A stretch of 64,000 bases of DNA from Sporichthyaceae bacterium (GTDB lineage Bacteria; Actinomycetota; Actinomycetes; JACCUZ01), in NCBI GenBank assembly GCA_031365725.1, contig JANLYQ010000019.1, forward strand, positions 683 through 64,682. Reading direction: 5' to 3'. This document shows positions 10,188-61,896 of the stretch, piece after piece. The translations under genes were made by a program, and so were the position numbers. Numbering within the stretch: position 1 is the first letter of the stretch; each line of letters opens with the position of its first letter. Under the pieces are notes generated by a model. The model saw only the letters and a list, made by a program, of their open reading frames with translations. It was not told where the DNA came from and did not search any database.

Positions 10188-10616
10188 TCAGTGCCGTCGC
10201 GACGCGCAGCCGATGCACAGGGTGGCGGAGGGTCGAGCGACGAGCCGTTCGGCGGCTATGTCCTGGTGACATCTTTCGCACCGGCCGTAGGTGCCGTCAG
10301 CGAGCCGTAGCTGGGCGGCTTCGAGGTCGGCGATCTGGACCCGGGTCTCCTCGAGCATCGCCATGGCCTGCGCACGTTCGAAGGCGACGGTCGCACCTTC
10401 GGGGTCGTGCTCGTCGTCGGTGGCACCGGCCTTGGCCGACTCGACGATGACGGCGACGTCGCGCGCGAGAGCGGTCGCCCGAGCCTCGGCGGCGATGCGT
10501 TCGCTCGCCAGTCGGGCGTGGGCTTCGGCCAGCCGCGGATCCTGGGCGGCGCGCGTCGTCGAGGCGGCGCGGGTCGTGGTGCGTGCCGTGCTCTGGGCAA
10601 CTGGTGCGGCGGTCAT
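10188..10616 (-). CDS. TraR/DksA family C4 zinc-finger protein
   Basis: Coiled coil with tip ATDDEHDPEG and C-terminal YGRCERC...RPSATLCIGC; ATG 10616 overlaps fdhD stop. Confidence 0.85.
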   Translation of the reverse strand: MTAAPVAQSTARTTTRAASTTRAAQDPRLAEAHARLASERIAAEARATALARDVAVIVESAKAGATDDEHDPEGATVAFERAQAMAMLEETRVQIADLEAAQLRLADGTYGRCERCHQDIAAERLVARPSATLCIGCASRRH

Positions 10617-12713: not shown

Positions 12714-12809
12714 GGAGGCGTCAGGGTGCCTGGTGGCCCCCGCGGTCTTCAACACCGACGTGACCGAGGATCTCGGTCAGGCGGGTTCGATTCCCGTCCG
12801 CCTCCGCCA
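12714..12809 (+). tRNA. selC: tRNA-Sec (anticodon UCA)
   Basis: GGAGGCG/CGCCTCC acceptor, G discriminator, encoded CCA; D loop TGGT; anticodon loop CTTCAAC (12747-12753); long variable arm TGACCGAG-GAT-CTCGGTCA; T arm GCGGG-TTCGATT-CCCGT; 96 nt; sits between selD and selA. Confidence 0.95.
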
Positions 12810-16215: not shown

Positions 16216-16269
16216 AGGTCGCTCGGCCGGCGAGGTGTGAAACGCGACACCGACGGTAGGAGGCCCGGC

Positions 16270-19200: not shown

Positions 19201-19465
19201 GCACTGGGGACCCACCGGGCTGACCACCGGCGATGCGGCCAACGAGATCGTCGGCATCGAGCTCGATCCCAACGTGCACATCCAGGACAAGGTCGGCAGC
19301 TGCGACGTGCAGCCCGGGCGTCGGCCGCGGGGACCCGCCCTGCTCGACTACGTCGCGGGCTACCGGGCCCGCGCCGGCATCCCCGACGACGGCACCGACC
19401 TGCATCGCAGTGACGGCCCGACCAGCCGCACCACCGAGACCACCGACACTGGGGAACCCTCGTGA
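16270..19465 (+). CDS. Selenocysteine-containing Mo/W-bis-PGD formate dehydrogenase alpha subunit (FdnG/FdoG-like); in-frame UGA 16837-16839; apparent frameshift near 19121
   Basis: Joins ORF-track pieces 16237-16839, 16948-19413 and 19136-19465: CPFCAVGC..CPKG, ENQARI-U-HSTTVPGLG, GSNMAEAHPVGF, RGHASIQG, HRLTEHHTAG, HQVGIPWHWG; GTG 16270 has AGGAGG 6 nt upstream. Confidence 0.9.
16837..16868 (+). promoter_or_regulatory. UGA(Sec) codon with bacterial SECIS hairpin
   Basis: TGA at 16837, 12-nt spacer, then GTCCCC-GGTCT-GGGGAC (16852-16868), same position and GGTCT apex as the E. coli fdhF SECIS. Confidence 0.88.
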
Positions 19466-22612: not shown

Positions 22613-23059
22613 ATGATGGACAAGCGTGAGCTGCTCGTCCTGTCCAGGCGAGAGTGCATCGCCTATCTGCAGGGACAGAACGTGGGACGAGTCGTCTTCA
22701 CCGAACGGGCGCTTCCGGCCGTCATGCCGGTGTCGTACGCCGTCCTGGACGACGCTCTGGTCATGTCGACCGCGGCGGGGTCGAGGTTGGCTGTGGCCGC
22801 TCGTGGCGGCGTCCTCGCCTTCGAAGTGGATCATCTCGACCCGGTCACCCGCACCGGGTGGAGCGTGGTCGTCACGGCGCTTCCCGAGGCCGTCATCGCT
22901 CCACAGGACCGGGCCCGAGTCTCGTTGGTCCTCGACAGCTGGGCGCCCGGCTCTCACGACCTGCTGCTGCGGCTCCCGTTGACCGTCATCACCGGTCGGC
23001 GGATCGAAAGCACTCCCGCGCTGGTGCCGCCTGGGATAGACACGACCTATGAGCACTGA
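22613..23059 (+). CDS. Pyridoxamine 5'-phosphate oxidase-like split-barrel protein
   Basis: LSRRECIAYL..GRVVF..LPAVMPVSY, VLAFEVD, GWSVVV. Confidence 0.85.
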   Translation: MMDKRELLVLSRRECIAYLQGQNVGRVVFTERALPAVMPVSYAVLDDALVMSTAAGSRLAVAARGGVLAFEVDHLDPVTRTGWSVVVTALPEAVIAPQDRARVSLVLDSWAPGSHDLLLRLPLTVITGRRIESTPALVPPGIDTTYEH

Positions 23060-23720
23060 GGCCGCGGCGCCCGGACCGATCCGGGTCTTCCTGCTCGACG
23101 ACCACGAGGTGGTCCGTCGCGGCCTGCGGGACCTGCTCGAGTCCGCAGGCGACATCGAGGTGGTCGGGGAGTCCGGGTCGGCGCAGGAGGCCATCCGGCG
23201 CATCCCGGCACTCAAGCCCCGGGTGGCGATCCTCGACGGACGTCTCCCGGACGGGTCGGGCGTGGACGTGTGCCGCGAGATCCGCTCCCGCGACCCGGGG
23301 ATCTCAGCGCTCATCCTCACGTCGTACGACGATGACGAAGCACTTTTCGCAGCCATCATGGCCGGGGCCTCGGGCTACCTGCTCAAGCAGGTGCGCGGAC
23401 ACGACCTGCTGGACGCGGTCCGTCGAGTTGCTGCCGGACAGTCCCTGCTCGACCCCGCCATGACCAGCCAGGTGCTCCAGCGACTGCGAGAGGGTCCGCA
23501 GCTGGACTCTGCCCTCGACGGCCTGACCGCCCAGGAGCGTCGGGTCCTCGACCTCATCGGGGAGGGGCTCACCAACCGGGCCATCGGAGAGCGCCTGTTC
23601 CTCGCCGAGAAGACGGTGAAGAACTACGTGTCCAGCCTGCTGGCCAAGCTCGGCCTGCAGCGGCGGACGCAGGCAGCGGTCTTTGCGAGCAAGCACCCCG
23701 GTGCAGGCAAGCATGAGTGA
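23049..23720 (+). CDS. dosR: DosR/DevR-like NarL-family response regulator
   Basis: VFLLDDHEVVRRGL, ILDGRLPDGSG, LTSYDDDEAL, GYLLKQVRG, HTH GLTNRAIGERLFLAEKTVKNYVSSLLAKLG (near-identical to the DevR recognition helix). Confidence 0.88.
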   Translation: MSTEAAAPGPIRVFLLDDHEVVRRGLRDLLESAGDIEVVGESGSAQEAIRRIPALKPRVAILDGRLPDGSGVDVCREIRSRDPGISALILTSYDDDEALFAAIMAGASGYLLKQVRGHDLLDAVRRVAAGQSLLDPAMTSQVLQRLREGPQLDSALDGLTAQERRVLDLIGEGLTNRAIGERLFLAEKTVKNYVSSLLAKLGLQRRTQAAVFASKHPGAGKHE

Positions 23721-24708
23721 CCCCGGGCTCGTCCGCGACATCGTCGGCGCAGCCGTGCAGGCCCCGTCAGCGCACAACGCGCAACCGTGGCGATTCGTCG
23801 CGCACGGTGACGTCATCGAGCTCTGGGCCGACCCGTCCCGTGCGTTGCCGGTGCTCGACCCACATGGCCGTGCGGCGCACCTCAGTTGCGGCGCCGCCCT
23901 GCTCTTCGCTCGAGTCGACGCGGCCAGCAAGGGTCTCTCCGGCCAGACCGCGCTCCTGCCGGACCTGTCGAAGCCGGACCACCTGGCCGATCTCACCCTC
24001 GGGACGGGCCGGGTCGAGCCCGAGCTGGCTACCCTCCGACCGGCCATCGACACCCGACACACCGATCGCGGAACCTTTGACGAGAGCACACCCGTGCCCG
24101 CCGACCTCCTCCGGGCCCTCGCCGACGCCGTGCAGGTCGAGGGCTCCTGGCTGCGGGTCGTCAGCAACACCAGTGACTCGGCAGCTGTCGCCGTGCTGCT
24201 GTCACGGGCGGACGACGTCCAGTCGGCGGATCCGGACTACCGGGCCGAGCTCGGCGCGTGGACCGGACGATCGGACGACAGCCCGGACGGCGTGCCCTCG
24301 TCTGCGGTGCCGACGGTGGCCCCGTCCGAGCGAGGCTCGAACTACCGGCTGCGCGACTTCGACACCGACCGAGAGGCCGCCGGGCCACGATGGGCGGGTG
24401 AGCCACCACTGCCTGAGCATCCCGCGGTCGTCGTCCTCGGCACCGCCGACGATGACGCGGCAGCGTGGCTGCGCGCCGGCGGCGCCCTGGGTCGGTTGCT
24501 GCTCACGGCAACGGCGTCCGGCCTGGCCGCCTCTCCGATGACGCAGGCCCTGGAGGTGGACGACACCCGGGCCCGACTGGTCCAGGAGCTCGGCCTGGTC
24601 GGGCATCCGCAGATGGTGCTACGGATCGGGTTCCGGCCGGCGGACGACTCGCCCCCGCTCGGGCACTCACTGCGACGACCGGTGGACGAGATCCTCGAGA
24701 TGCGCTGA
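23713..24708 (+). CDS. Acg-family FMN-binding nitroreductase-like protein
   Basis: APSAHNAQPWRF, DPHGRAAHLSCGAAL, RHTDR, WLRAGGALGRLLL, PQMVLRIG. Confidence 0.9.
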   Translation: MSDPGLVRDIVGAAVQAPSAHNAQPWRFVAHGDVIELWADPSRALPVLDPHGRAAHLSCGAALLFARVDAASKGLSGQTALLPDLSKPDHLADLTLGTGRVEPELATLRPAIDTRHTDRGTFDESTPVPADLLRALADAVQVEGSWLRVVSNTSDSAAVAVLLSRADDVQSADPDYRAELGAWTGRSDDSPDGVPSSAVPTVAPSERGSNYRLRDFDTDREAAGPRWAGEPPLPEHPAVVVLGTADDDAAAWLRAGGALGRLLLTATASGLAASPMTQALEVDDTRARLVQELGLVGHPQMVLRIGFRPADDSPPLGHSLRRPVDEILEMR

Positions 24709-24712
24709 GCGG

Positions 24713-26431
24713 GTGGACGAGCAGCCGACCCTGCCCAAGGCACCGGGCAGCTCACAGCTCCCGGACGCCATGCGCCTCAAGCTGGACGACCTTCTGCGCC
24801 AGCTCATCGATCGCGCGCAAGAAGTGCTTCGCACCGAGGGTCGCCTGCAGGGCCTGGTCCGCGCCACCCAGTCGATCACGTCCCATCTCGACCTCCCGAC
24901 CCTGTTGCAGCACATCGTCGTGGAGGCGCGGATCCTGATCGGTGCGCGCTACGCGGCACTGGGCGTCGTGGGTGACAACGGGCTGCTCACCGAGTTCGTG
25001 CACGACGGGATGGACGCGGAGACTGTCGCGCGGATCGGTCATCTCCCGACGGGGGGCGGCTTGCTGGGCGAGCTGATCACGCGGCCGGTGCCGCTGCGCC
25101 TGGCCCATCTGTCCGACCATGCGTGTGCGGTCGGCTTCCCACCCGGGCATCCGCCGATGACCTCATTCCTGGGTGTGCCCGTCCGCATCCGCAGCCAGGT
25201 CTACGGCAACCTCTACCTGACCGAGAAGGCTGATGGGACGGACTTCACCCGCGAGGACGAGGACCTTGCCCTGTCCTTGGCGGCTGCGGCTGCGGCTGCC
25301 ATCGACAACGCGCGCCTCTACGACACCGTGGCCCGTCGTGAGCACTGGCTCCAAGCGGCCAGCGCCCTCACCAACGATTTGATGCGCATCGAGGACCGCG
25401 ACGAGGCCCTGGCCCTCGCGACGCTCGCCGTCCAGACTGCGGCTGAGGCCGACCATGCCGCCGTACTCGTCAGCGACGGGGCCGGGGTCATGCGCTTCGC
25501 AGCCGCGGTGGGACCGGATGCTGACCGCGTCATCGGGGTGGCTCCTCCGGAAGGCTCACCGGTCCTGCTTGCCGCCCGCGAGCGACGTCCGGTGTTGTTC
25601 GACGACCTGCGCGAGCACGACGAGATTCACGGTCCCATCAAGGACCTCGGGATCGGCCCGATGCTCGCCGTGCCTCTTGCCGCGCAGGACCAGGTGCTCG
25701 GAGCGTTAGTGCTGGGAAATCGCCCTGGTCGGGCCATCTTCACCCCGCAGGACGTGCACATGGTGCAGGAGTTCGCGACCCAGGCAGCGCTCGTGCTCCT
25801 GGTCGCTGCCTCGCGTGCAGCCAGCAAGGAGCTCGACCTCGCCGAGGAACGGGCCCGCATCGCGCGGGACCTGCACGACCACGCGATCCAGGGCATCTTC
25901 GCCGTCGGCCTGGGCCTCAACGGGCTCTCCCTCAAGGTCGGCGGGACCGACGGTGAGCGCATGATCGAGCTCGTCGATCAGCTCGACGATGCGATCAAGT
26001 CGATAAGACGCAGCATCTTCGCCCTGCAACGACCTGTCGGCTCAGACCCCGGGCTGCTGGCCCGACTCGGCCGAGTCGTCGCGCGTGCGACAGAGACCCT
26101 GGGATTTGCTCCCGTATTGCGGACCCACGGTGACCTCGACGGCGCAGTCTCCATGGACGTGGGCGATGACCTGCTCGCCGTCGTGGCCGAGTCTCTGTCC
26201 AACGTGGTGAGGCATGCCGGGGCCACCAGCGTCGGCGTGTCGGTACAGGTGGGACTCGACCTGGTCCTGGAGGTCCACGACGACGGTGTCGGGATCGGTT
26301 CACCCACGCGAACGAGCGGCTTGGCCAACATGCGCAGTCGGGCCGAGCGGCACGGTGGCAGTTGCGAGATCGGAGTCGGAACAGCGGGCGGCACGTCGAT
26401 CCGCTGGGCAGTACCACTGACAGGGGACTGA
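24713..26431 (+). CDS. DosS/DosT-like double-GAF sensor histidine kinase
   Basis: GARYAALGV, GFPPGHPPMTSFLGVP (heme-ligand His motif of DosS GAF-A), GNLYLTEK, RIARDLHDHAIQ, ESLSNVVRHA, DDGVG, SGLANM. Confidence 0.9.
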   Translation: MDEQPTLPKAPGSSQLPDAMRLKLDDLLRQLIDRAQEVLRTEGRLQGLVRATQSITSHLDLPTLLQHIVVEARILIGARYAALGVVGDNGLLTEFVHDGMDAETVARIGHLPTGGGLLGELITRPVPLRLAHLSDHACAVGFPPGHPPMTSFLGVPVRIRSQVYGNLYLTEKADGTDFTREDEDLALSLAAAAAAAIDNARLYDTVARREHWLQAASALTNDLMRIEDRDEALALATLAVQTAAEADHAAVLVSDGAGVMRFAAAVGPDADRVIGVAPPEGSPVLLAARERRPVLFDDLREHDEIHGPIKDLGIGPMLAVPLAAQDQVLGALVLGNRPGRAIFTPQDVHMVQEFATQAALVLLVAASRAASKELDLAEERARIARDLHDHAIQGIFAVGLGLNGLSLKVGGTDGERMIELVDQLDDAIKSIRRSIFALQRPVGSDPGLLARLGRVVARATETLGFAPVLRTHGDLDGAVSMDVGDDLLAVVAESLSNVVRHAGATSVGVSVQVGLDLVLEVHDDGVGIGSPTRTSGLANMRSRAERHGGSCEIGVGTAGGTSIRWAVPLTGD

Positions 26432-26460: not shown

Positions 26461-27348
26461 TCATTCGTGGCGCGGCACGACCGCCACCGCACAGGTCGCC
26501 AGGTGCAGGACGCCGTGGCTCACCGAGCCGAGGAGAAGACTCGTCATCGATCCGCGTCCTCGGCATCCGACGACCAAGAGCTGTGCCTCTGCTGCGGCTC
26601 CGGTAAGTGCACGCACCGGGTGGTCGTGCACGACCCGTGAGTGCACGACGACCCCGGGGTACGTCGCCGACAACGTGTCGAGCGCAGCCCGCAAGACGTC
26701 GCGTGCCCGCACGAGGAGCTCCGCCGTCTCGTCCCGGAGCGGGAACCCGGCTGCCATGACGTGCGGCGCGAGAGGATCGGTCCAGGCCAGAACTGCAGTC
26801 AACGACGTCCCCGACTCGGCGGCCTCACGAAACGCCCACTCGAGAGCTGCATCGGAGAGCGCCGTGCCGTCAACACCGACGACGATGCCTACCCCACTCG
26901 TGATCTGGGTGGGGACGGCGACAACGGGACAGTGGGCGTAGGTGGCCACGTTCATCGTCGTCGATCCAGCCAGCAGGGTGCTCAGCGCGCTGACGCCGTG
27001 CGAGCCGACGACGACGATCTCTGCACGCTCCGACTCGGCGATGAGAGCCGCCTTGGCGGAGTTCGATGCGAGCTCGGTCTGGATGGACAGGTCACGAGCG
27101 ATCGACCGGGCTTGTTGCAGCTGCTCGTGCAGCAGACGCGTGGCGGTGACCTCACGCTCCCGCGTGAGCGTGGGGAGCGAACCGCCTCCGATCATCACGT
27201 CGCTGAAGGCAGGGTCAAGGGCATGCACCAGCCGCACCGGTGCGCCCCGCCGGGCGGCGTAACGCAACCCCCACGCCAGCGCCTGATGTGACCCCGCCGA
27301 GCCATCGACCCCGATGACCACCGGGAGCACGCTGGTGTCTGTACTCAT
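26461..27348 (-). CDS. Universal stress protein (two USP domains)
   Basis: VVIGVDGS, VVVGSHG..LLAGSTT, IVVGVDGT, LVVGCRGRG..LLGSVS. Confidence 0.92.
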   Translation of the reverse strand: MSTDTSVLPVVIGVDGSAGSHQALAWGLRYAARRGAPVRLVHALDPAFSDVMIGGGSLPTLTREREVTATRLLHEQLQQARSIARDLSIQTELASNSAKAALIAESERAEIVVVGSHGVSALSTLLAGSTTMNVATYAHCPVVAVPTQITSGVGIVVGVDGTALSDAALEWAFREAAESGTSLTAVLAWTDPLAPHVMAAGFPLRDETAELLVRARDVLRAALDTLSATYPGVVVHSRVVHDHPVRALTGAAAEAQLLVVGCRGRGSMTSLLLGSVSHGVLHLATCAVAVVPRHE

Positions 27349-38923: not shown

Positions 38924-39802
38924 ATGGCGAGCACCGACAGAGCCGTAGTCGTAGGGATCGACGGCTCACCGGAGAGCCGAGCTGCGTTGACGTACGCCGC
39001 CGAGCTGGCAGCCGGTCGGCATCTGTCGCTGCGGGTGGTCTGCGCGTTGCCGGAGGGTCACGCGCGGGACACGTGGACCGACATCGTGAGGCGGAAGCTG
39101 CAGACTGACGGCGAGCACCTCGTCGCCGATGCCGTGGACGAGGTGCGCCGAGACTTCCCGCGCCTGGCCATCGCCTCCGAGGTCGTGGCGGGGAGCGCTG
39201 TGGCCATGCTGCTGCACGAGGCGGAGCTCGCTGACACCCTCGTCGTCGGCAGCCGCGGCGCCGGTGGGTTCACTGGTCTCCTTCTAGGTTCCACGGCCCT
39301 GCATGTCGCGACGCGGGCTCGATGCCCAGTCGTGACCGTGCCGACCACCGATCCCACGCGTCCGGCAGGACGACGGATTGTGGTGGCGGTCGACGGATCT
39401 CCGCAAGCCCAAGCCGCCATCGAGTATGCGTGCCGGCTGGCCGACGAGCTCTCCGAGCCCGTCCTTGCCGTGCACGCCTGGAACGACCCGGTCCAGCTGT
39501 CACCCGCTGTGCTGGTGCCGCTGGACTACCAGCCGCTCTTGCTGGCCGAGGAGCAGGCCGGCCGGCTCGAGCTGGCGGAGGCACTCGCCGGGTGGGCCGA
39601 GAAGTTTCCCTCCGTCACCCTCGAGCAGCGAGTCCTGCAGGGTCAGCCGGTGCACGTGATCCTCACCGAGGCCGCCGCAGCACGCATGATCGTCGTCGGT
39701 TCGCGTGGCCACGGCCCGGTCCGGAGTCTGCTCGGGTCGGTCAGCCACGGGCTGCTGCACCACGCTGCCGTGCCGGTCGCTGTGGTCCACACGGACCGGT
39801 GA
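38924..39802 (+). CDS. Universal stress protein (two USP domains)
   Basis: VVVGIDGS, LVVGSRGAGGF..LLGST, VVAVDGS, VVGSRG..LLGSVS. Confidence 0.93.
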   Translation: MASTDRAVVVGIDGSPESRAALTYAAELAAGRHLSLRVVCALPEGHARDTWTDIVRRKLQTDGEHLVADAVDEVRRDFPRLAIASEVVAGSAVAMLLHEAELADTLVVGSRGAGGFTGLLLGSTALHVATRARCPVVTVPTTDPTRPAGRRIVVAVDGSPQAQAAIEYACRLADELSEPVLAVHAWNDPVQLSPAVLVPLDYQPLLLAEEQAGRLELAEALAGWAEKFPSVTLEQRVLQGQPVHVILTEAAAARMIVVGSRGHGPVRSLLGSVSHGLLHHAAVPVAVVHTDR

Positions 39803-39838: not shown

Positions 39839-40981
39839 GTGCCGACCTCAACAGGTGACGTCCTGGTCGTGAACTGCGGGAGCACGTCGGTCAAGATTGC
39901 TGTCGTTGACCCCGCCACCGGTGCTCGCCGGGGCGCGGGGGCACGAGAAGCCGTGCCACCCGGCGGACATCACGCTGCCGTCACGTCCGTCCTGGACGAG
40001 CTGGATGCAGACCTGCTCAAGTCCGTAGTCGGCGTCGGGCACCGGGTCGTGCACGGCGGTCCCCGGTTCACCGACCCGGTGCTGGTGGACGACCAGGTGC
40101 GAGCCGCCCTCGGCAACCTGGTGTCGCTCGCTCCGTTGCACCTGCCGGCCAATCTCCGCGGGATCGACGTCGTGGGTGAGCGGCTGCCTGCCCTGCGCCA
40201 CGTGGCGGTCTTCGACACCGGATTTCACAGCAGCCTCCCGTCCCGCGCCTACCGGTACGCGGTGCCACAGTCATGGTTCGACGACCACGGGGCACGGAGG
40301 TACGGCTTCCACGGCATCAGCTGTCGCATCGTGACCGACCGCACAGCCGCGCTGCTCGGACGACCGGTCGAGGACCTGAGGCTCGTCGTGGCCCATCTCG
40401 GCGGTGGGTGCAGCGCCACCGCCGTGAGTGACGGCCGGTCGGTCGACACCAGCATGGGCTTCACCCCGCTGGAGGGGCTTGTCATGACCACCCGCAGCGG
40501 TGACATCGATCCTGGACTGCTGGCGTACCTGGCGCCCCGGCTCGGACTGGACCTGCTCCAGCTGGTCGAGATCCTGAACACCCGCAGCGGACTCGCGGGC
40601 CTGTCCGGCATGAGCGGTGACATCCGCGAGCTGACCGCTGCAGCTGCTGCAGGTTCCCCCGTCGCCACGCTGGCGCTCGAGGTGTTCAGCTATCGGCTGG
40701 CCAAGACGATCGCGGCCATGACCGTGCCGTTGGCGAGGTGGGACGCCTTGGTCTTCACCGGCGGGATCGGCGAGCACAGCCCGGAGATCCGGTCGCGGGT
40801 CATGGCGCTGCTCGGTGTGTTCGGCGTCCATGAGGATGCGGCCGCGAACGCCGCCCATGGTCAGGAGACGGCGGGCCGGGTGAGCCTCATCGCAGAACGC
40901 CCAGGGCCCACCGTGCTCGTCGTACCCACCGACGAGGAACGGGTCATTGCCTCAGACACCGCGCTGTTGCTCGGGATCTGA
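39839..40981 (+). CDS. ackA: Acetate/propionate kinase
   Basis: VNCGSTSVK, GHRVVHGG, APLH, FDTGFH, RYGFHG, HLGGG, SMGFTPLEGL, TRSGDIDP, FTGGIGE. Confidence 0.93.
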   Translation: MPTSTGDVLVVNCGSTSVKIAVVDPATGARRGAGAREAVPPGGHHAAVTSVLDELDADLLKSVVGVGHRVVHGGPRFTDPVLVDDQVRAALGNLVSLAPLHLPANLRGIDVVGERLPALRHVAVFDTGFHSSLPSRAYRYAVPQSWFDDHGARRYGFHGISCRIVTDRTAALLGRPVEDLRLVVAHLGGGCSATAVSDGRSVDTSMGFTPLEGLVMTTRSGDIDPGLLAYLAPRLGLDLLQLVEILNTRSGLAGLSGMSGDIRELTAAAAAGSPVATLALEVFSYRLAKTIAAMTVPLARWDALVFTGGIGEHSPEIRSRVMALLGVFGVHEDAAANAAHGQETAGRVSLIAERPGPTVLVVPTDEERVIASDTALLLGI

Positions 40982-40996
40982 GCAACCGACCACCGG

Positions 40997-43381
40997 TCAG
41001 CCTGCGGTGTCGCCCAACGTCCAGCCCTGCACATCTGGAAGATCCTCGAGGTGGTCGACGATGTAGGCGGCGTGCTCGGCCAGTCTGGCCTGGCACCACG
41101 CTTTCAGCTCGCTGGCTCCTGCCGGCGTACGGCGTGCGTTGTTCACCGCATCCATCACCAGGTGATAGCGCGACACCTTGTTGCGCACCACCATGTCGAA
41201 CGGCGTCGTCGTGGTGCCTTCCTCGATGAACCCGCGCACTCGGAAACGGTCCGCGTCTGGGCGCCCGTGGATCAACTGGTGCACCGCACCCGGATAGCCG
41301 TGGAACGAGAACACGACATCGACCGCGTCGGTGAAGAGCTCGCTGAACAGCGTCTCGCTCATGCCGTGCGGGTGGTCCTTGGGTCGGGGCAGAGTCATGA
41401 GGTCGATGACATTCACCACCCGCACCCGCAGGCGAGGCAGCCTCTCGCGCAGGATCTGTGCAGCAGCGACGGTTTCCATTGTCACGACGTCGCCGGCGCA
41501 CGCGAGCACGATGTCGGGCTCGTCGACACCGTCATCGGTCCCGGCCCAGTCCCAGACGCTGGCACCCCGCGCGGCGTGCGCGACAGCATCGTCGATGGAC
41601 AGCCACTGGAGCTGGGGCTGTTTGTCGATCACGATCAGGTTGACGTAGGACCGTGACCGGAAGCAGTGGTCCGCGACGGCGAGCAGGCTGTTGGCATCCG
41701 GCGGGAGATAGACCCGGCTGACGTTGGCCCGCTGGGTGATGACGTTCTGGATCAGGCCAGGGCCCTGGTGGGAGAACCCGTTGTGGTCGTTGCGCCAGGC
41801 GGTCGAGGTGAGCAGGACGTTCAGGCTCGGCACCTTCGCCCGCCAGGAGAGGTTGGACGCCTCCTCGAGCCACTTGCTGTGCTGGATGGTCTGCGACGCG
41901 CTCACCATCGCAAACGCCTCGTAGGTGGCAAAGAGCCCATGTCGGCCGCTGAGGGTGTAGCCCTCGAGCCAGCCGTGACAGTTGTGCTCCGAGAGGACCT
42001 CCATCACCCGACCGTCGCGGGAGAGGGAGACGTCCTGGTCAGTCACCCGCTCCGCGAAGGCGCGGTCGGAGACCTCGAACACGGCGCCCAGCCGGTTGCT
42101 GTTGGTCTCGTCGGGGCAGAAGAGTCGGAAGTTGTGCGGGTTGGCTCGATAGATGTCGCGCATCATCTCGCCGAGCCGGCGGGTCGACTCGACCAGCTCG
42201 GTGCCGGGCCGCGCGACCTCCACGGCGTAGTCCCGGAAGTCTGGCAGTGCCAGATCCTCAGCGAGCAGGCCGCCGTTCGCGTGCGGGCTGGCGCTCATCC
42301 GACGGTCACCGGCCGGGTTGTTGGACAGCACAACTCGCGTCGGCTTCCCCTCCGCGTCGAACAACTCGTCCGGCCGGTAGGACAGGAGCCACTCCTCGAG
42401 CAGCCGCAGGTGTTCTGGGTTGTCCTTGACGCCGGACAACGGGACTTGGTGGGACCGCCAGGTGCCGGTCACCTGGATACCGTCGACCTTCTCCGGCCCG
42501 GTCCATCCCTTGGGGCTGCGCAAGACGATGAGCGGCCACTGTGGCCGGGCGCCGTCCCACGATCCGCCCCGGGCGGCGCTCTGGATGTTGCGGATGCGCG
42601 TCCAGGCCTCCGCCAGCACGGCGGCAAACCGTCGGTGCATGCCCGGCAGATCATCACCCTCGACCTCGAGGACGTGGTAGCCGTGGCCCTCCAGCAGGGA
42701 TCGGACTTCGGCGGGATCCTTTCGGGCCAGCACCGTGGGTCCAGAGATCTTCGCTCCGTTCAGGTGCAGCACCGGCAGCACCGCTCCGTCACGGGTCGGA
42801 TTGAGGAACGAGATGCCCTTCCAGGACCCTTCCAGGGGTCCAGTCTCGGCCTCGCCGTCTCCGACGACGGCCAAGGCGATGAGCTCGGGGTTGTCCATCA
42901 CTGCCCCGAACGCATGCATCAGGACGTAGCCGAGTTCGCCGCCCTCGTGGATCGACCCGGGAGTGGGGACGGACACGTGGCTCGGGATGCCTCCGGGGGA
43001 AGAGAACTGCCGGCAGAGGATCGCGAGACCAGGCTCGTCCTGCGTCACCTTCGGATAGACCTCCGAGTAGCGACCCTCGAGATAGCCGGCGGCGACCAGC
43101 GCGGGACCGCCGTGTCCTGGTCCGGCAAGGTAGATCACCTGCTGCCCTGTGTGCCTGATGAGCCGGGAGACGTGGGCATAGACGAAGGAAAGTCCCGGAC
43201 TGGTGCCCCAGTGCCCGAGCAGCCGGGGCTTGATGTCGGCAGGGGTCAGCGGCCTACGGAGCAGTGGGTTCGCCAACAAGTAGATCTGGGCGATCGTCAG
43301 GTAGTTGGCCGCTCGCCACCAGGAGTCCAGCGCAGCCAGCTCGTCGTCATCGGGCTCGGAGAGCAGGTCGTCTCGCAGCAC
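40997..43381 (-). CDS. xfp: Phosphoketolase (Xfp)
   Basis: WRAANYL, LGHWGT, GPGHG, PGSIHEGGELGY, GDGEAETG, HLNGAKI, EVLSEH, HNGFSHQ, GFIEEGTTTTPFDM. Confidence 0.96.
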   Translation of the reverse strand: MLRDDLLSEPDDDELAALDSWWRAANYLTIAQIYLLANPLLRRPLTPADIKPRLLGHWGTSPGLSFVYAHVSRLIRHTGQQVIYLAGPGHGGPALVAAGYLEGRYSEVYPKVTQDEPGLAILCRQFSSPGGIPSHVSVPTPGSIHEGGELGYVLMHAFGAVMDNPELIALAVVGDGEAETGPLEGSWKGISFLNPTRDGAVLPVLHLNGAKISGPTVLARKDPAEVRSLLEGHGYHVLEVEGDDLPGMHRRFAAVLAEAWTRIRNIQSAARGGSWDGARPQWPLIVLRSPKGWTGPEKVDGIQVTGTWRSHQVPLSGVKDNPEHLRLLEEWLLSYRPDELFDAEGKPTRVVLSNNPAGDRRMSASPHANGGLLAEDLALPDFRDYAVEVARPGTELVESTRRLGEMMRDIYRANPHNFRLFCPDETNSNRLGAVFEVSDRAFAERVTDQDVSLSRDGRVMEVLSEHNCHGWLEGYTLSGRHGLFATYEAFAMVSASQTIQHSKWLEEASNLSWRAKVPSLNVLLTSTAWRNDHNGFSHQGPGLIQNVITQRANVSRVYLPPDANSLLAVADHCFRSRSYVNLIVIDKQPQLQWLSIDDAVAHAARGASVWDWAGTDDGVDEPDIVLACAGDVVTMETVAAAQILRERLPRLRVRVVNVIDLMTLPRPKDHPHGMSETLFSELFTDAVDVVFSFHGYPGAVHQLIHGRPDADRFRVRGFIEEGTTTTPFDMVVRNKVSRYHLVMDAVNNARRTPAGASELKAWCQARLAEHAAYIVDHLEDLPDVQGWTLGDTAG

Positions 43382-43481: not shown

Positions 43482-43569
43482 GGCAGTTCCGTCCGACCAG
43501 CCCTGACGAAGAGGTGCGGCCGGTGGTCTGGTGGAGGGGCACACCACCCGCCGTACAGGAGGACACGTC

Positions 43570-44427
43570 ATGGACAGCACGCTCCGGAGAGCAGTCGTGG
43601 TCGGACTCGACGAGTCGTCGCACGCTCGCGAAGCCGTCGATCACGCCGCTGCTCTGGCCGACCGCAAGCGGCTTGCCCTGCGGCTCGTGCACGCGGTGAA
43701 CCCTTCGCAGTACGGCGCCGGCGCCTCAGCCGGCTGGTCACCCGATCCTTTCGGCATTCCGTACCGTGCGGCGGAGGCTCTCGTCACCGAGACCGTGTCC
43801 CGCGTCAAGGACCGCTATCCGCAGCTGACCATCACCTCCAGGCTCGAGTTCCACTCCCCGGTGGACCTTCTGGTGGAGGAGTCTGAGGCCGCCGAGGTGC
43901 TGGTCCTGGGGGTGCGTGGCAGTGGTGGGTTCTCCGCGCTGCTGGTCGGCTCGACGACGGTCCGTCTGGCGAGCAAGGCACACTGCCCGGTGATCGCCGT
44001 ACGCGCGGAGCTGCATCGTCGTCGTCCTCGGCACGGGATCGTGGTCGGTGTCGATGGGTCTCCCGAGGCCGCAGAGGCCTTGGAGTTCGCCCTGAGCGAG
44101 GCAGCGGAGACCAAGCAGTCCCTGACGGCCGTCATGGCCTACGCCGACCCCGCCTCCCTGGGTAACGCCGTGATCCACCCGCTGGTGAACGCGGCGCTGG
44201 CTGAGGCACTCGCCGGCTGGGGTGAAAAGTACCCCGACGTCAGCATCGAACGGCTGATCGTCTGCGAGCAACCGGTCAAGGCCCTTGTCGAGGCATCGGC
44301 AGCAGCGGAGCTGCTCGTGGTGGGTTCCCGCGGCCGAGGCGCACTCCGGTCGATGTTCGGTTCCGTGAGCCACGGCGTCCTGCATCACGCCGACTGCTCG
44401 GTCGCCGTGGTGCACAGTCGGCCCTGA
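43570..44427 (+). CDS. Universal stress protein (two USP domains)
   Basis: VVVGLDES, LVLGVRGSGGF..VGST, IVVGVDGS, VVGSRGRG..GSVS; AGGAGG before ATG 43570. Confidence 0.93.
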   Translation: MDSTLRRAVVVGLDESSHAREAVDHAAALADRKRLALRLVHAVNPSQYGAGASAGWSPDPFGIPYRAAEALVTETVSRVKDRYPQLTITSRLEFHSPVDLLVEESEAAEVLVLGVRGSGGFSALLVGSTTVRLASKAHCPVIAVRAELHRRRPRHGIVVGVDGSPEAAEALEFALSEAAETKQSLTAVMAYADPASLGNAVIHPLVNAALAEALAGWGEKYPDVSIERLIVCEQPVKALVEASAAAELLVVGSRGRGALRSMFGSVSHGVLHHADCSVAVVHSRP

Positions 44428-45079: not shown

Positions 45080-45862
45080 ATGCCACAGATCACCCAGGTC
45101 CTGCCAGCCCTCACCGCGTCCCACCAGCGGCTCGCCGCCGCTGTCGCGGGACTCGCCGAGGGCGACGGCACCCGCCAGTCCTATGCCAGCGAGTGGACCA
45201 TCGCCCAGGTCCTCTCCCACATCGGGTCCGGTGCCGAGATCAACACGCGGGTCATCCAGTCCGTCGTGTCGGGCGACCCCACACCCAGCCGTGACGACCT
45301 GACCGAGATCTGGGGCCGCTGGGACGCCAAGTCGCCCGAGGCACAGCTCAGCGACGGCGTCGCGTCCGATGCCGCGCTGCTCGACGACATCGCTTCCCTG
45401 TCGGGGGAGCAGGTCTCCGGCTGGCGGCACACGCTGCATGGTGAGGAGGTCGACCTTGCCGGCCTGCTGATGCAGCGCCTCGGTGAGCACGCGCTGCACA
45501 CCTGGGACGTGGTCGTCGCAGTCGATCCCGCGGCTACGGTGTCCGCGGACGCGGTCGCCTTGCTCATCGATGCACTCGCCATGGTGGTGTCGAAGACGGC
45601 CACGCTCGCGCCGGGGTCTCGGATCGCGGTTACGACGACGGAGCCGGCGCGGACGTTCCTGCTCGAGGCGGACTCCGAAGCTGCCTCCCTCGCCGTTGTC
45701 GACCCCAACTCCTCGGCGGACGCGACGGCCTCGCTGCACCTGCCGGCGGAGGCGTTCCTTCGCTTGACCTACGGCCGGCTCGACCCCGACCACACGCCGG
45801 CCGGAGTTGAGACTGACGGCGTCGACCTCGGCACCCTGCGGCAGGCCTTCCCCGGCTTCTGA
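45080..45862 (+). CDS. Mycothiol-dependent maleylpyruvate isomerase (MDMPI/DinB-like) family protein
   Basis: EWTIAQVLSHIGSG, RLGEHALHTWD, AFLRLTYGRL. Confidence 0.82.
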   Translation: MPQITQVLPALTASHQRLAAAVAGLAEGDGTRQSYASEWTIAQVLSHIGSGAEINTRVIQSVVSGDPTPSRDDLTEIWGRWDAKSPEAQLSDGVASDAALLDDIASLSGEQVSGWRHTLHGEEVDLAGLLMQRLGEHALHTWDVVVAVDPAATVSADAVALLIDALAMVVSKTATLAPGSRIAVTTTEPARTFLLEADSEAASLAVVDPNSSADATASLHLPAEAFLRLTYGRLDPDHTPAGVETDGVDLGTLRQAFPGF

Positions 45863-49317: not shown

Positions 49318-49797
49318 TTAGGAGGCGCCGGTCGAAGTGTGCTTGACCGGGGCCGGGGCCGGTGCCGGCCGCGGGGCGGGTGCCCGCACCGCCACGGCCG
49401 GCGGGGCGGCGACAACGCCGCCACCCGAGGCGGCGTACGTCCGCGGTACGAGGCCGGTTGTACCGCCGCCGCTGCCAGGGATCGGGCGTCGGGACAGCGC
49501 CCGGGTCTGGGCGTGCAACCGGGCCAGCGCCTTCTGCAGCCGGACGACCCGGGCCTGCTCGGCTGTGGCCGCCTGCGACAGCACGATGGTCGGCTTGTCG
49601 AGGCTGCTGCGATCCACGGCAGCCACCGGGCGACCGCTCGCCACCCCGGGCTGGTCCTGGGTCGCCGTGGTCTTCTTGGCGACGGAGGCCGGGTGGGCAA
49701 CGCCCCAGGCCGTGGCAGCCGTCAGCACGCCGGCGGCCAGTGGCGCGACCACCGCTGCGGTACCCCACTTGATGTTGCGAGCCATCCGCTCAGTCAT
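49318..49797 (-). CDS. Membrane-tethered/secreted coiled-coil protein ending in HTSTGAS
   Basis: N-terminal hydrophobic helix, coiled coil AEQARVVRLQKALARLHAQ, Pro/Ala linker, terminal motif at 49321-49341; ATG overlaps upstream stop. Confidence 0.72.
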   Translation of the reverse strand: MTERMARNIKWGTAAVVAPLAAGVLTAATAWGVAHPASVAKKTTATQDQPGVASGRPVAAVDRSSLDKPTIVLSQAATAEQARVVRLQKALARLHAQTRALSRRPIPGSGGGTTGLVPRTYAASGGGVVAAPPAVAVRAPAPRPAPAPAPVKHTSTGAS

Positions 49798-50290
49798 CGC
49801 GGCCACCACCCTGACCGTCGTCGCCGCCCCCGCCGGCACTCGAGCTTGCCCCGGTGGCGGTGTGCGCGGCCGGTGCTGACTTTGCGGGCTGCTGACGGGC
49901 ACCATGCACCACAGGCTGTACGACGGGGCGCGCGGCTGCTTCGCGCGCTGCCGCGACGGCGGCGACGCGCTGCTTCGTGGCGGCAGCGATCCTGCGGGCA
50001 CGCGTCTTCTTGGCCGCTGCCAGCTGGGCCTCCGCGTCGGAGACGCGCTGGTTCAGCTGGTCGCCGCGCTGCGACATCGTGTCCACGTAGTCCTGCAGCG
50101 CCTGTCGACCATCGGTCTGCTGGGCGGACCCGACCGTGGTCAGGGCAGGGGCTGCGAGGGCGGCCGGGCTATCGGCGGACGGGGTCGTGGTGGCCGCGTC
50201 ACTGCCCACAGTGGCGACTGCTGCCCCGGCTGCGCCGAGGATCCCGGTGGCCGCGACGACGGTCATCGTCACGCGTCGAGAGCGCTTCAT
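49790..50290 (-). CDS. Membrane-tethered/secreted coiled-coil protein with HTATGAS near the C-terminus
   Basis: MKRSRRVTMTVVAATGILGAAG signal, coiled coil LQDYVDTMSQRGDQLNQRVSDAEAQLAAAK, motif at 49844-49864, GGGGDD tail; AGAGGGG RBS. Confidence 0.75.
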   Translation of the reverse strand: MKRSRRVTMTVVAATGILGAAGAAVATVGSDAATTTPSADSPAALAAPALTTVGSAQQTDGRQALQDYVDTMSQRGDQLNQRVSDAEAQLAAAKKTRARRIAAATKQRVAAVAAAREAAARPVVQPVVHGARQQPAKSAPAAHTATGASSSAGGGGDDGQGGGRDD

Positions 50291-50365
50291 GGTGTGCCCC
50301 TCTTGCTCAGCTGCTTGGTGCTCCGTGCCTCAAGCATCGGCGCCCTGCCACGGGTCCACCGCCGC

Positions 50366-50382
50366 TTAGGGGTCAGTTAGGG
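50366..50382 (-). promoter_or_regulatory. 11-bp-spaced direct repeat (OmpR/PhoB-type site candidate)
   Basis: TTAGGG at 50366 and 50377 (CCCTAA-N5-CCCTAA on the minus strand), 76-92 bp upstream of ATG 50290. Confidence 0.35.
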
Positions 50383-50423
50383 CAGCGAAAGGCGAAATTT
50401 GTCCCCCGCGGCGCCGCTCCCCG

Positions 50424-51086
50424 TCAGCGCAGGGAGAACGGTGGGTACCGGTCGGTGACGAGCAGGAACGCGTACGCCTCGACCCGCAGCCACCAGCGGC
50501 CGACGCCGACCACGTAGTCGAACAACCCACGCGGATAGCGGCCCGTCACCAGGATCGCGACCCATGCAGCGACCACCGAGAAGACTGCGCCCACGGACAA
50601 GAACAGCAACAGCACAAAGTGCGGGATGGCGAGCAGCCACTTCACCAAGGGCAACCAGCGGTTGAGGTCTTGGGCGGCGTCGGGATAGTCGAGCCCCAGA
50701 TCCACCTTCTGCTTATCGACGGTCGAGGGGTAGTCGTCAGTCAGGAGCGCGACGTAGGCACCCACCCGAGCGCCGAAACGAGCGAGCTCGAGTGCGAAGT
50801 CGAACCACCACCGCGGATATCGCTGCCGGAACAGGATCATCAACAGAGTCGCCAAGAACAGGCCACTGGCGATGCCGCCGCTGGTGGAGCTCACCGCCTT
50901 TCCGCTCTGGTCGTACACCGTCCGTGTCACACCGGACGTGAGCAACCCGTAGATGATGGCGATGGGAATGACGAGCGCGATCCGGAAGAGCGACGTCAGC
51001 CGGTTGTGCTCGGCCGTGTACTCGACGGCGAGACGGGCTGGGTAGCTCGAGGGCACTGAGGGCGCGGACTCGACCTGGTCGGACAT
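50424..51086 (-). CDS. DUF4389-type membrane protein
   Basis: YPARLAVEY, LFRQRYPRWWFDF, YVALLTDDYP, LNRWLPLVKWLLAIPHF, GRYPRGLFD, LVTDRYPPFSL. Confidence 0.85.
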   Translation of the reverse strand: MSDQVESAPSVPSSYPARLAVEYTAEHNRLTSLFRIALVIPIAIIYGLLTSGVTRTVYDQSGKAVSSTSGGIASGLFLATLLMILFRQRYPRWWFDFALELARFGARVGAYVALLTDDYPSTVDKQKVDLGLDYPDAAQDLNRWLPLVKWLLAIPHFVLLLFLSVGAVFSVVAAWVAILVTGRYPRGLFDYVVGVGRWWLRVEAYAFLLVTDRYPPFSLR

Positions 51087-59777: not shown

Positions 59778-60237
59778 CCGACGGACCGGCAGTTGGGTCC
59801 GCAGCCATGTCGCGAACCCGACGCTACGGGCGGCACTGCGGTCCCCGGCCCACCGAGCACTGTCCGGATCCCTACTCCTGCTCGACTACACCAGTCGGTC
59901 CGGGCGACGCTGCGTGTTCCCAGTCCAGTACTCAGTCTCTGGTGAGGAGCTGGTGGTCGTCGCTGGCGATCACCGCACAAAGACGTGGTGGCGCCACTTC
60001 GACGACCATCCCCAACAAGTGATCGCCTACCTTCGTGGTCGCCCCACCCAGGTGAGCATGAGACTGCTCATCGCCCGTCCCGACGACCGGGCCCGAGCTG
60101 TGGCGTCGTACACGAAGCGATTTCCCAAGGCGAACGTTCTGCCCGACAGCCCGGTCCTCCTGCTCGTGCCCATAGCCGCAGCCGTTGCGGCGAGCACGCC
60201 GTCGGTCAATGGCCCGGCGCCACTGACGCCAGAGTGA
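59770..60237 (+). CDS. F420-binding split-barrel (deazaflavin nitroreductase-like) protein
   Basis: ANPTLRAALRSPAH, LLLDYTSRSGR..FPVQY, KTWWRHF; ATG overlaps CPBP stop. Confidence 0.7.
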   Translation: MASRRTGSWVRSHVANPTLRAALRSPAHRALSGSLLLLDYTSRSGRRCVFPVQYSVSGEELVVVAGDHRTKTWWRHFDDHPQQVIAYLRGRPTQVSMRLLIARPDDRARAVASYTKRFPKANVLPDSPVLLLVPIAAAVAASTPSVNGPAPLTPE

Positions 60238-60946
60238 GCTCTGGGACTCGGCTGGGGTCGTTGAGCAAGGCTCGCGACACATCCCCCAGCCGCTGGTCCG
60301 TGGAGCGTGCGTACCCGCGCAGGAGGACGAATGCTTGGTCCACGTCGACCCTGCGGAGCCGGGCCAACGCCCCTTTGGCTTGCTCGACCACGATCCTGGC
60401 GTTGAGCGCTGCCTGGAGCTGCTCGGTCAGGCTGCCGTCACGCGCCAACGTCGGTTCGTGGAGGATCGCCAAGGTGGCGACGTCGGCCAGTGCCTGGACA
60501 AGGCGCACCTCGCTCGCTTCGAAGGCCAACGCCTCGTTACCGAAGATGTTCAGCGCGCCGATCACTCTGTCCCGCACACGCATCGGGAAAGCGTGTACCG
60601 AACCGAAGCCGTACTCACGAGCCCGCGGGGCAAACAGGGGCCATCGCTCGTCAGCCCGCGCCAGGTCCGAGTTGATCACCGGAGTGCCGCTGCGAAAGCA
60701 GTCCAGACAAGGGCCTTCCTCGTTCTGGAGCTGGAAGAGCTCCAGGAGGCGAGCGTTCTCGTTCGACGCCGCCATGTAATGCAGGTAGCGGTGTTGGTCG
60801 GTGAGGAGGAGCCCGACGGACGCCGCGCCACTCACGCTCGCCGCATGAATGGTCAGATCATGCAGGAAGGCGACCAGGTCGAAGTCGGACACCAGGGCGT
60901 CGGAAACATCCGCGAATACGAATGAGAGACGTTCGACCGAGATCAC
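60206..60946 (-). CDS. GAF-ANTAR domain protein
   Basis: FADVSDALVSDFD, LELFQLQNEEGPCLDC, HAFPMR, LQAALNARIVVEQAKG, AFVLLRGYAR; AGGAAAGGAGG before GTG 60946. Confidence 0.9.
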   Translation of the reverse strand: MISVERLSFVFADVSDALVSDFDLVAFLHDLTIHAASVSGAASVGLLLTDQHRYLHYMAASNENARLLELFQLQNEEGPCLDCFRSGTPVINSDLARADERWPLFAPRAREYGFGSVHAFPMRVRDRVIGALNIFGNEALAFEASEVRLVQALADVATLAILHEPTLARDGSLTEQLQAALNARIVVEQAKGALARLRRVDVDQAFVLLRGYARSTDQRLGDVSRALLNDPSRVPELTLASVAPGH

Positions 60947-61103
60947 CGGCGTGGCCCTCCTTTCCTGGGATGCGGCTCCAACGAGGTCTGGCCGAGGATC
61001 ACCTGCGGGCCCACCGTACGCCTCGAGGGAATCGGTGACGGCGTCGGCGCGAAGGCCCGAGCCCCATGGGGCGTACGTTGGGGAGGTTCGCTGTAGAGGC
61101 CCC

Positions 61104-61136
61104 GTCGGTGCCCGACCAGTGACCGGAGAGGTCACT
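61104..61136 (+). promoter_or_regulatory. Tandem hairpins covering the RBS of the second ANTAR gene
   Basis: GTCGG-TGC-CCGAC (61104-61116) and AGTGACC-GGAGA-GGTCACT (61118-61136), ending 1 nt before ATG 61138. Confidence 0.4.
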
Positions 61137-61137
61137 C

Positions 61138-61896
61138 ATGCTGGATGGTCACACGAGCGAAGATGACCAGCAGGGTCGACGGTTGAGGGCGAGAGTCCTC
61201 TCCGCGATGGCCATCGCAGCTCCGCACCCCGGAGAGGCCGGTCCGACGGGTGTTCTCAACCGGCTCTGCCGCACCATCGTGACAGACCTCGGGGCCATGG
61301 GAGCGGCCGTCAACCTGATGGCTGGCCCCTCACACGCCCAAGCTGTGGTGGGGATGTCCGATGACAAGAGTGCGGTGGTGGACGACCTGCAGTTCACTGT
61401 CGGAGAAGGGCCCTGCCACGACGCCTTGCGCACCGGTCGTCCGGTGCACTCCAGTGATCTGGGAACGGAGACCCGCTGGCCGGGGTACTGCTCCGCCGCC
61501 CAGGAGCACGGGGTGCTGGCGGTCTATGCGTTTCCGCTCCAGGTGGGCGCGGTCAGCCTTGGGGTGCTCGACGTCTACGACTCTCGCCGGCGGGTGCTCG
61601 ACGAAGGGGCCCTGGGACTGGCTCTGGCCTACGCCGACATTGCCACCGAGAGCCTGCTCCACAGCAGCGGCGACGACACAAGGTTCATCGACCCCGGCCT
61701 CCGGACCGCCCTCGGCTCGCGCGCCCAGATCTACCAGGCGCAGGGCATGGTCAAGGTCGACAACGACATCTCGCTCAACGAGGCCATGATCCGCATCCGA
61801 GCCTTCGCCTACGGAAACCGGAGAGCGATCGCCGACGTAGCTCATGACATCGTCGAAGGGACTCTGGTACTCCCCACAACGGCGTCCCGCCTATGA
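61138..61896 (+). CDS. GAF-ANTAR domain protein
   Basis: LQFTVGEGPCHDA, AVYAFPLQVGAVSLGVLDVY, RAQIYQAQGMV, AMIRIRAFAY. Confidence 0.9.
   Translation: MLDGHTSEDDQQGRRLRARVLSAMAIAAPHPGEAGPTGVLNRLCRTIVTDLGAMGAAVNLMAGPSHAQAVVGMSDDKSAVVDDLQFTVGEGPCHDALRTGRPVHSSDLGTETRWPGYCSAAQEHGVLAVYAFPLQVGAVSLGVLDVYDSRRRVLDEGALGLALAYADIATESLLHSSGDDTRFIDPGLRTALGSRAQIYQAQGMVKVDNDISLNEAMIRIRAFAYGNRRAIADVAHDIVEGTLVLPTTASRL

Follow-up and report, generated by a model that had tools for sequence, protein, structure and literature searches.

Two small, domain-less membrane proteins with ApbE-type heptads as candidate flavin carriers of an actinomycetotal electron-transfer module

In the 64,000-nucleotide stretch of contig JANLYQ010000019.1 from a Sporichthyaceae bacterium that we analyzed (the window), two small overlapping genes, here called A and B, encode proteins that carry the heptads HTATGAS and HTSTGAS in, or at the very end of, their tails. 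An earlier note on this DNA had taken the pair for minimal carriers of covalently bound flavin mononucleotide (FMN) that would move electrons outside the membrane. A and B appear to be the two small substrate subunits of a module for flavinylation and transmembrane electron transfer that is specific to Actinomycetota, and thus natural tethered flavin carriers, a reading to which we assign a probability of about 0.6. What the data show is how the two genes are built and linked, that the motif is conserved and that no folded domain is present; flavinylation, topology, the electron path and complementation in trans are inferred. The system would be of a known kind, ApbE-dependent MsrQ-like electron transfer; the substrate architecture is the new element, absent from the literature searched.

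AlphaFold2 predicts for A an N-terminal hydrophobic segment, a helix at residues 55-120 and then a disordered tail, in which the motif is followed by a Gly/Asp-rich end. For B, it predicts helices at residues 3-32 (the hydrophobic anchor) and 63-102, with the remainder disordered, including a 57-residue tail that ends in the motif. The two predictions agree on the common layout proposed earlier: an N-terminal hydrophobic segment, a helix and a flexible tail. Neither model contains a globular domain, Pfam and NCBIfam returned zero matches to B at E<=1 and only chance-level matches to A, and neither protein matches the Pfam model FMN_bind (PF04205), all of which bears out the description of the pair as domain-less. 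When the A and B families were compared profile to profile with hhalign, the alignment was confined to 20 columns around the motif (E=1.3e-5), the only place where the two proteins resemble each other.

Both heptads lie exactly where the earlier note had placed them. A word-indexed search of 5.8 billion proteins returned three relatives of A and seven of B, all unannotated and all motif-bearing, and the motif is invariant in 10 of 10 close homologues. The B family is rare: when 1.84 billion representative proteins were searched in full with a hidden Markov model (HMM) of the B family, only 42 sequences emerged, and peptide-pattern scans for B-family relatives in GTDB genomes and JGI metagenome contigs found nothing. 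Of 47 B-family sequences, 42 have the motif 0-5 residues from the C-terminus, and three of the other five are fragments. Within these 42 motif-bearing sequences, the acceptor position is always Ser, position -3 is Thr in 40 and position -1 is Ala in 36, while position -6 is His in 31, Asn in 5, Gln in 3, Asp in 2 and Ala in 1 (one of H, N, Q or D in 41/42). The [S/T]-G-A-[S/T] core reads T-G-A-S at residues 146-149 of A and 156-159 of B. The conservation on which the earlier proposal depended therefore held. The possibility it had raised for checking, that H-x-x-T-G-A-S is the sole conserved block, did not, since the B transmembrane segment and both helices are conserved as well and the His itself varies.

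At the first position of the heptad, the Asp of published sites is described as "strictly conserved" in a review of ApbE (PMC12052999). The same review reports that Asp-to-Ala substitution has only minor effects, that seven residues suffice for ApbE, that tags work best at a terminus, and that Ser is accepted as the acceptor, although less well than Thr. The canonical Asp occurs at position -6 in L021, L023, P0020 and P0039 (L and P numbers denote individual loci and proteins), and the A-type proteins of Actinoplanes and Paractinoplanes carry D-A-T-T-G-A-S, which is the canonical ApbE heptad. Based on residue counts and these D-A-T-T-G-A-S orthologues, the motif matches D-x-x-[S/T]-G-A-[S/T] position by position, with the first position relaxed to polar residues. 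Reading His as a replacement for Asp, as the earlier note did, appears reasonable in view of the orthologues with Asp, the minor effect of Asp-to-Ala and the performance of seven-residue terminal tags; it fits the window and most relatives, although His is one of several residues used at this position.

Further support comes from gene linkage. Contigs were readable for seven homologues, six of them ~50% identical (seven contigs, L001-L007) and one 98.5% identical to the window (L008). As far as the contigs reach, the order in L001-L007 is A, B, ApbE (PF02424), Ferric_reduct (PF01794, MsrQ-like), NuoF-like (PF01512 and PF10589) and a Fer4_15 ferredoxin (PF13459); in L002 the B gene is present though uncalled. 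A scan of GTDB, with one genome per species and the Ferric_reduct alignment as query, gave 27 loci, all from Actinomycetota and mostly from soil and sediment metagenome-assembled genomes. The carriers include Jatrophihabitans, Kineosporiaceae, Propionibacteriaceae and Acidimicrobiia, together with the cultured Paractinoplanes durhamensis NBRC 14914 and Actinoplanes sp. NPDC049599; in the former (locus L023) the pair occupies 8224-8995 and ApbE 8860-9951. Local HMMs identified ApbE, Ferric_reduct and NuoF-like genes in 27/27 loci, and the ferredoxin in every locus that reaches far enough (L034 stops inside the NuoF-like gene). The neighbors that a flavinylated pair would be expected to have, apbE and an MsrQ-like ferric-reductase-like gene, thus lie immediately downstream in every informative homologue contig, and the module recurs in 27 GTDB genomes.

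Among the 23 loci that have upstream DNA, 19 carry one or two small open reading frames (ORFs) with xxx[ST]GA[ST] directly upstream of ApbE, the motif standing either at the C-terminus or ahead of an acidic tail. The four exceptions are L013 (rearranged upstream), L024 (which ends in NTSTSGS), L027 (TTTKAS) and L035 (none). L013 is the converse of the window arrangement: its ApbE-Ferric_reduct-NuoF-like-ferredoxin module (8875-12227) lacks A and B, and an opposite-strand dnaE-like gene abuts the clipped 5' end of ApbE. No conserved [ST]G[AG][ST] was found in the NuoF-like, Ferric_reduct, ferredoxin or ApbE proteins of the cluster, which leaves A and B as its only candidate substrates. Likewise, no gene for an FMN-binding domain is called beside or between A, B, ApbE, Ferric_reduct, NuoF-like and ferredoxin in the annotated loci; judged by gene order, A and B occupy the place of the FMN_bind protein in the module.

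The assignment of the Ferric_reduct protein rests on its Pfam match (five of the five proteins tested match PF01794) and on its His spacing. Invariant His104/His118 and His181/His194, spaced 14 and 13 apart, lie on the third and fifth hydrophobic segments, a spacing that we take to be the bis-haem pattern of the PF01794 superfamily; a sequence search of the PDB with the family profile gave nothing significant. By the positive-inside rule both termini would be cytosolic, and in the topology so predicted the two most conserved peptides, GDRNAPWI and DSYAGVGW, fall in outer loops, which makes them candidate contact sites for the A and B tails.

We propose that an ancestral operon encoded A, B, the flavin adenine dinucleotide (FAD):protein FMN transferase ApbE, an MsrQ-like di-haem Ferric_reduct cytochrome b, a NuoF-like NADH (reduced nicotinamide adenine dinucleotide) dehydrogenase and a single-cluster ferredoxin. 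A and B would each consist of an N-terminal anchor or signal, a long helix (the two helices possibly pairing with each other) and a disordered Pro/Ala/Gly tail bearing a minimal ApbE recognition heptad, [H/N/Q/D]-x-x-T-G-A-S, to whose last Ser ApbE would move FMN from FAD in phosphoester linkage. Electrons from NADH would pass through the NuoF-like protein and the ferredoxin to the two haems. The outer haem would then reduce the FMN tethered to the flexible tails, which would hand the electrons to an external acceptor.

Several observations weigh against the assignment of A and B as flavin carriers. Both window proteins have His, not the published Asp, at position -6. The motif is degenerate in a few loci (T-K-A-S, T-R-A-S, T-S-G-S), and in one clade (L009, L010, L012 and L016) A lacks the motif but retains its acidic tail, while B retains the motif. 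A cytosolic ApbE and outside tails, both predicted below, would be in different compartments unless modification precedes export. Finally, the window pair stands without an apbE, Ferric_reduct, NuoF-like or FMN_bind gene. The tail of A is strongly acidic and His-rich in relatives, and since it is kept where the TGAS motif is lost, it may have a role of its own, for example in cation or mineral binding. In the four-locus clade it is very long and rich in Asp, Ser and His, with repeats such as DSDDSDDSDD.

In an alternative reading, A and B are non-flavinylated accessory subunits of the MsrQ-like/NuoF-like complex, with roles in assembly, anchoring or regulation. The C-terminal peptide would then be a docking or processing signal, which might bind the outer loops of the cytochrome or be O-glycosylated or cleaved, and ApbE would have another target. 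Conservation of the B transmembrane segment to the same degree as the motif suggests a specific intramembrane partner, the predicted separation of ApbE from the tails is readily accommodated, and some members have Lys or Arg for the Gly of the motif, or Gly for its Ala. On the other hand, the motif stays in register with the ApbE heptad at every constrained position, the canonical Asp appears in some orthologues, the other cluster proteins lack a candidate site, and an apbE kept in 27/27 loci needs a substrate. We therefore consider a purely accessory role unlikely and retain the assignment of A and B as ApbE substrates.

The compartment in which modification would occur raises a separate question. 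In L001, L002 and L004-L007, an in-frame stop leaves only ~21 residues before the conserved FRSMAT(D/E)VTL start of ApbE, and no signal peptide, lipobox or credible hydrophobic signal precedes this start in the loci examined (e.g., L004 3341-4330). The length of the cluster ApbE equals that of signal-less crystallized ApbEs and, together with the missing signal, this predicts a cytosolic enzyme. Conversely, the basic N-termini of A and B and the neutral or acidic regions past their hydrophobic segments place both C-termini outside by the positive-inside rule. A cytosolic ApbE with exported substrates raises the question of the order of modification and export: possibly the tails are modified before export, and otherwise the topology or the role would depart from the model. 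An unfolded tail with a single FMN could plausibly pass Sec, and the twin-arginine translocation (Tat) system accepts small unstructured hydrophilic proteins. In the window and near relatives, the N-terminal region of A reads R-S-R-R-V-T-M-T before an Ala/Gly/Thr-rich segment; the twin-arginine form R-[ST]-R-R-[IV] is kept in near relatives and gone in distant A-type proteins, and B has no twin-arginine. The R-S-R-R of A would thus suit Tat export in near relatives, but it is not conserved in distant ones, and residues 1-29 of A could be either a signal peptide or a membrane anchor.

The same data bear on a further possibility, in which the flavinylated tails work at the cytoplasmic face of the membrane, or receive their FMN there ahead of export. 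The FMN of tails that remained inside would mediate between the ferredoxin or NuoF-like protein and the inner haem, and there would be no external wire. The signal-less ApbE of every locus examined, the existence of cytosolic ApbEs elsewhere (PMC12052999) and the fit of R-S-R-R with Tat export after cytosolic modification are all compatible with this. However, the N-terminal charges predict an N-in/C-out orientation for both proteins, the twin-arginine is neither conserved in distant A-type proteins nor present in B, and the NuoF-like protein already supplies a flavin on the cytosolic side. The chance that the tails work in this way seems to us rather remote, and we keep the model of an outer-face carrier.

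More specifically, A and B may be the first natural "flavin-tag" proteins. Having no flavin-binding domain, they would bear FMN at the tip of a disordered Pro/Ala-rich tether, on its final residue, as a captive shuttle that roughly keeps the redox properties of the free cofactor and works at the outer face of the MsrQ-like cytochrome; ApbE, lacking a signal, would flavinylate the still unfolded tail in the cytosol, and export would follow. A folded flavodomain, by comparison, could not be modified and then exported through Sec. We put forward this fuller proposal tentatively, as falling a little short of even odds. If it is true, flavinylation can be of use to the cell even where no pocket binds the flavin, the pair offers a simple model of how a tethered shuttle carries electrons across Gram-positive envelopes, and domain-based surveys overlook part of the flavinylome. 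Clusters of this type also slip past filters that demand a signal peptide on ApbE.

The homologous loci look like the NuoF-like subtype of the MsrQ-like clusters described by Meheust et al. (2021, eLife; PMC8238504), with A and B replacing the FMN_bind protein. In that survey, MsrQ-like/apbE clusters are typical of Actinobacteria, 31 of them include a NuoF-like gene, and an FMN-binding-domain gene is normally present. Shared with the loci studied here are apbE, a PF01794 six-helix di-haem protein, a PF10589 NuoF-like protein, the taxon Actinomycetota, and the proposed flow of electrons from cytosolic NAD(P)H through membrane haems to an extracytosolic flavinylated protein. Our loci differ in that the FMN-binding-domain gene is absent and two domain-less terminal-tag proteins are present instead, that their ApbE has no signal peptide, and that a separate ferredoxin is encoded; the window, moreover, holds the pair only.

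Known ApbE substrate classes (FMN_bind (PF04205), DUF2271, DUF3570, NqrB/RnfD, Flavodoxin_4 and FMN_red) resemble A and B in their [S/T]GA[S/T]-type site, their Ser/Thr acceptor and an adjacent apbE. Their site, however, sits in a folded, flavin-contacting domain, whereas that of A and B lies in a predicted disordered tail and, in B, at the extreme C-terminus. No domain-less ApbE substrate is described in the literature searched, including PMC8238504 and a 2024 follow-up. A parallel is offered by the engineered Flavin-tag (Tong et al. 2021, as summarized in PMC12052999), in which, according to that summary, a domain-free seven-residue motif suffices for ApbE and works best at a terminus; the tag is a laboratory construct with Asp first, whereas A and B would be natural and have His, Asn or Gln, rarely Asp. 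PplA and the multi-flavinylated surface proteins of Gram-positive extracellular electron transfer are likewise membrane-tethered and extracytosolic, with FMN attached by ApbE/FmnB and electrons moving outward, but they are FMN_bind-domain lipoproteins fed by Ndh2 and quinone, not by an MsrQ-like cytochrome. The lipoyl domains of 2-oxoacid dehydrogenase E2 carry a covalent redox cofactor as a swinging arm on a flexible Ala/Pro-rich tether. They would be an analogy only, as cofactor, chemistry and compartment differ from those of A and B and there is no homology.

The window's own copy is the pair without its module. Searches of the 64 kb with tblastn, cluster-specific HMMs and Pfam (on ~60 ORFs) agree that apbE (PF02424), Ferric_reduct, NuoF-like, Fer4_15 and FMN_bind genes are missing, as had been noted before for apbE and ferric-reductase-like genes, and we therefore regard the pair as detached from the module. 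A CN_hydrolase gene starts 61 nt past the B stop and is followed by a dihydropyrimidinase-like amidohydrolase gene (pyrimidine catabolism). L008 alone shares the window arrangement of DUF4389, A, B and CN_hydrolase. The DUF4389 membrane protein gene (50424-51086, minus strand) immediately precedes A in the window as in L008, but adjoins A/B in no other locus and for that reason is probably unrelated to the pair. Two candidate signs of synteny with the homologous loci were rejected: the MDMPI_N gene of the window (45080-45862) shows no detectable relationship to the one that lies upstream of A there (tblastn E=0.09), and the CN_hydrolase genes differ in size and context. The window sequence also occurs in freshwater-sediment metagenomes.

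In the window lineage, the pair and its promoter element would have split from the enzyme module, and function would then require an ApbE and partners encoded elsewhere; a trans-acting ApbE is plausible because MsrQ-like/apbE clusters are common in Actinobacteria (PMC8238504). A less favorable interpretation is that a rearrangement removed ApbE, Ferric_reduct, NuoF-like and ferredoxin and left a stranded remnant, with A and B neither modified nor useful. The missing module and the unrelated pyrimidine-catabolism genes so close to B are in line with this, as is L008, which has the same arrangement and in which the second copy of the upstream repeat (see below) is mutated to CCCTCA. The differences between the window and L008 also concentrate in B (10 substitutions and an indel, against zero changes in A). 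Against such decay, both ORFs, both motifs, the overlap, the ribosome-binding site and the upstream element are all intact in the window. The B substitutions are mostly synonymous (6 synonymous, 4 nonsynonymous) and spare the helix and the motif, which is weak evidence of continued constraint; the indel is a 6-nt difference of one Ala-Pro unit in the (AP)n repeat of the tail (49342-49380). Given also the plausibility of complementation in trans and the L013 module without A/B, which indicates that split arrangements occur, we judge a useless remnant improbable and favor a detached pair whose enzymes would act in trans.

The gene structure itself is compact (Table 1). The B start codon (49797-49795) lies within the last codons of A, whose TGA occupies 49792-49790, and the overlap is kept in homologues, in which A invariably ends in ..DD* (the asterisk marking the stop) and B invariably begins MT[ED]. 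The overlap is present and conserved, and we read it as translational coupling, in line with the earlier note, although its length is 8 nt and it is not of the 4-nt ATGA type.

The 5' region of A contains a direct repeat, CCCTAA-N5-CCCTAA, from which the earlier note had suggested OmpR-type control. In its general form, YTAA-N7-YTAA, the repeat precedes A in eight loci including the window. Six of them have it at -85 to -94 relative to the A start; L003 (-48) and L011 (-155) depart from this range, and three further loci have ATAA variants. A background of 1.17 Mb contains only three other copies, and the window has none apart from the one upstream of A. These features point to a cis element that is conserved and highly specific and that probably serves as an operator. 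An OmpR-family response regulator and a histidine kinase adjoin 10/27 clusters, and in L023 (Paractinoplanes durhamensis) a Pfam-confirmed OmpR-type pair, its regulator at 7145-8098, lies directly upstream of A. Together with the conserved repeat, these pairs make OmpR-type control plausible for the family, although no OmpR pair is adjacent to the window copy. An iron box of the IdeR/DtxR type was rejected on by-eye comparison with the consensus, as the repeat is direct and not palindromic. Scans of the 5' region and genes against Rfam gave no match, scans for sigma-70 promoters and intrinsic terminators found nothing, and no DosR-type palindrome was found upstream of A.

Table 1. Positions in the window of the A/B genes, their predicted segments and the upstream elements
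Feature	Positions	Strand	Description
ORF A	49790-50290	minus	166 aa; basic N-terminus (MKRSRR) and hydrophobic segment, long helix, disordered tail
A residues 1-29	50204-50290	minus	Twin-arginine-like n-region (R-S-R-R) and Ala/Gly/Thr-rich hydrophobic segment ending AVA|TVG
A residues 55-120	49931-50128	minus	Predicted single long helix, AlphaFold2 pLDDT (model confidence score) 95-98
A residues 143-149	49844-49864	minus	HTATGAS, candidate ApbE flavinylation heptad; candidate acceptor Ser149
A residues 150-166	49793-49843	minus	Gly/Asp-rich tail ending DD
A/B overlap	49790-49797	minus	ATGACTGA, 8 nt; B start within A end
ORF B	49318-49797	minus	159 aa; conserved transmembrane anchor, helix, Pro/Ala/Gly-rich disordered tail
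B residues 3-32	49702-49791	minus	Predicted transmembrane helix; family-wide block RW-x-T-A-A-x-V-A-P...W-[GA]-x-x-H-x-P
B residues 63-102	49492-49611	minus	Conserved Arg-rich predicted helix (EQARVVRLQKALARLHAQTRAL), AlphaFold2 pLDDT 82-93
B residues 103-152	49342-49491	minus	Predicted disordered Gly/Pro/Ala linker with (AP)n repeat
B residues 153-159	49321-49341	minus	HTSTGAS-COOH, candidate ApbE flavinylation heptad; candidate acceptor is the terminal Ser159
A ribosome-binding site	50297-50304	minus	AAGAGGGG, read from sequence
5' block	50325-50340	minus	CCGATGCTTGAGGCAC, conserved as CCGAYGNTG... in homologous 5' regions (by eye)
Direct repeat	50366-50382	minus	CCCTAA-N5-CCCTAA, 11-bp register, 90 nt upstream of A start, conserved
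GACAAAT block	50397-50403	minus	Lies upstream of the repeat and is conserved across homologous loci; possibly -35-like (by eye)

Other parts of the window were also surveyed. By its Pfam content, the region 21900-44500 resembles a hypoxia/dormancy (DosR-type) island, with a GAF-GAF-HisKA_3 sensor kinase, a LuxR-type response regulator, a nitroreductase, three tandem-USP proteins and two Pyridox_ox_2 proteins, as well as phosphoketolase and acetate kinase, PPDK, an alcohol dehydrogenase and two P-type ATPases (example ORFs at 23049-23720, 23683-24708, 24713-26431, 26461-27348, 38924-39802, 39839-40981, 40997-43381 and 43531-44427). Intergenic near-palindromes GGGAC-N4-GTCCC with one mismatch lie at 21864, 32219, 38821, 43468 and 58472, their total count being not above chance. 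A flavohaemoglobin-like gene (3-1628, minus strand; Globin, FAD_binding_6 and NAD_binding_1) runs past the window end and has a ~250-residue N-terminal extension without a Pfam match.

Features at 12714-12809, 13090-16215 and 16216-19413 belong to a further group, which comprises a complete selenocysteine set (tRNA-Sec, SelA and SelB) and a molybdopterin formate-dehydrogenase-like gene; a SelD-like AIRS protein is encoded at 11521-12624. The reading frame of the formate-dehydrogenase-like gene contains a TGA codon at 16837-16839, flanked as R-I-U-H-S-T, and an Fe-S subunit, an NrfD-like subunit and FdhD are encoded nearby. Two GAF-ANTAR RNA-binding regulators stand divergent and back to back at 60209-61135 (minus) and 61138-61896 (plus).

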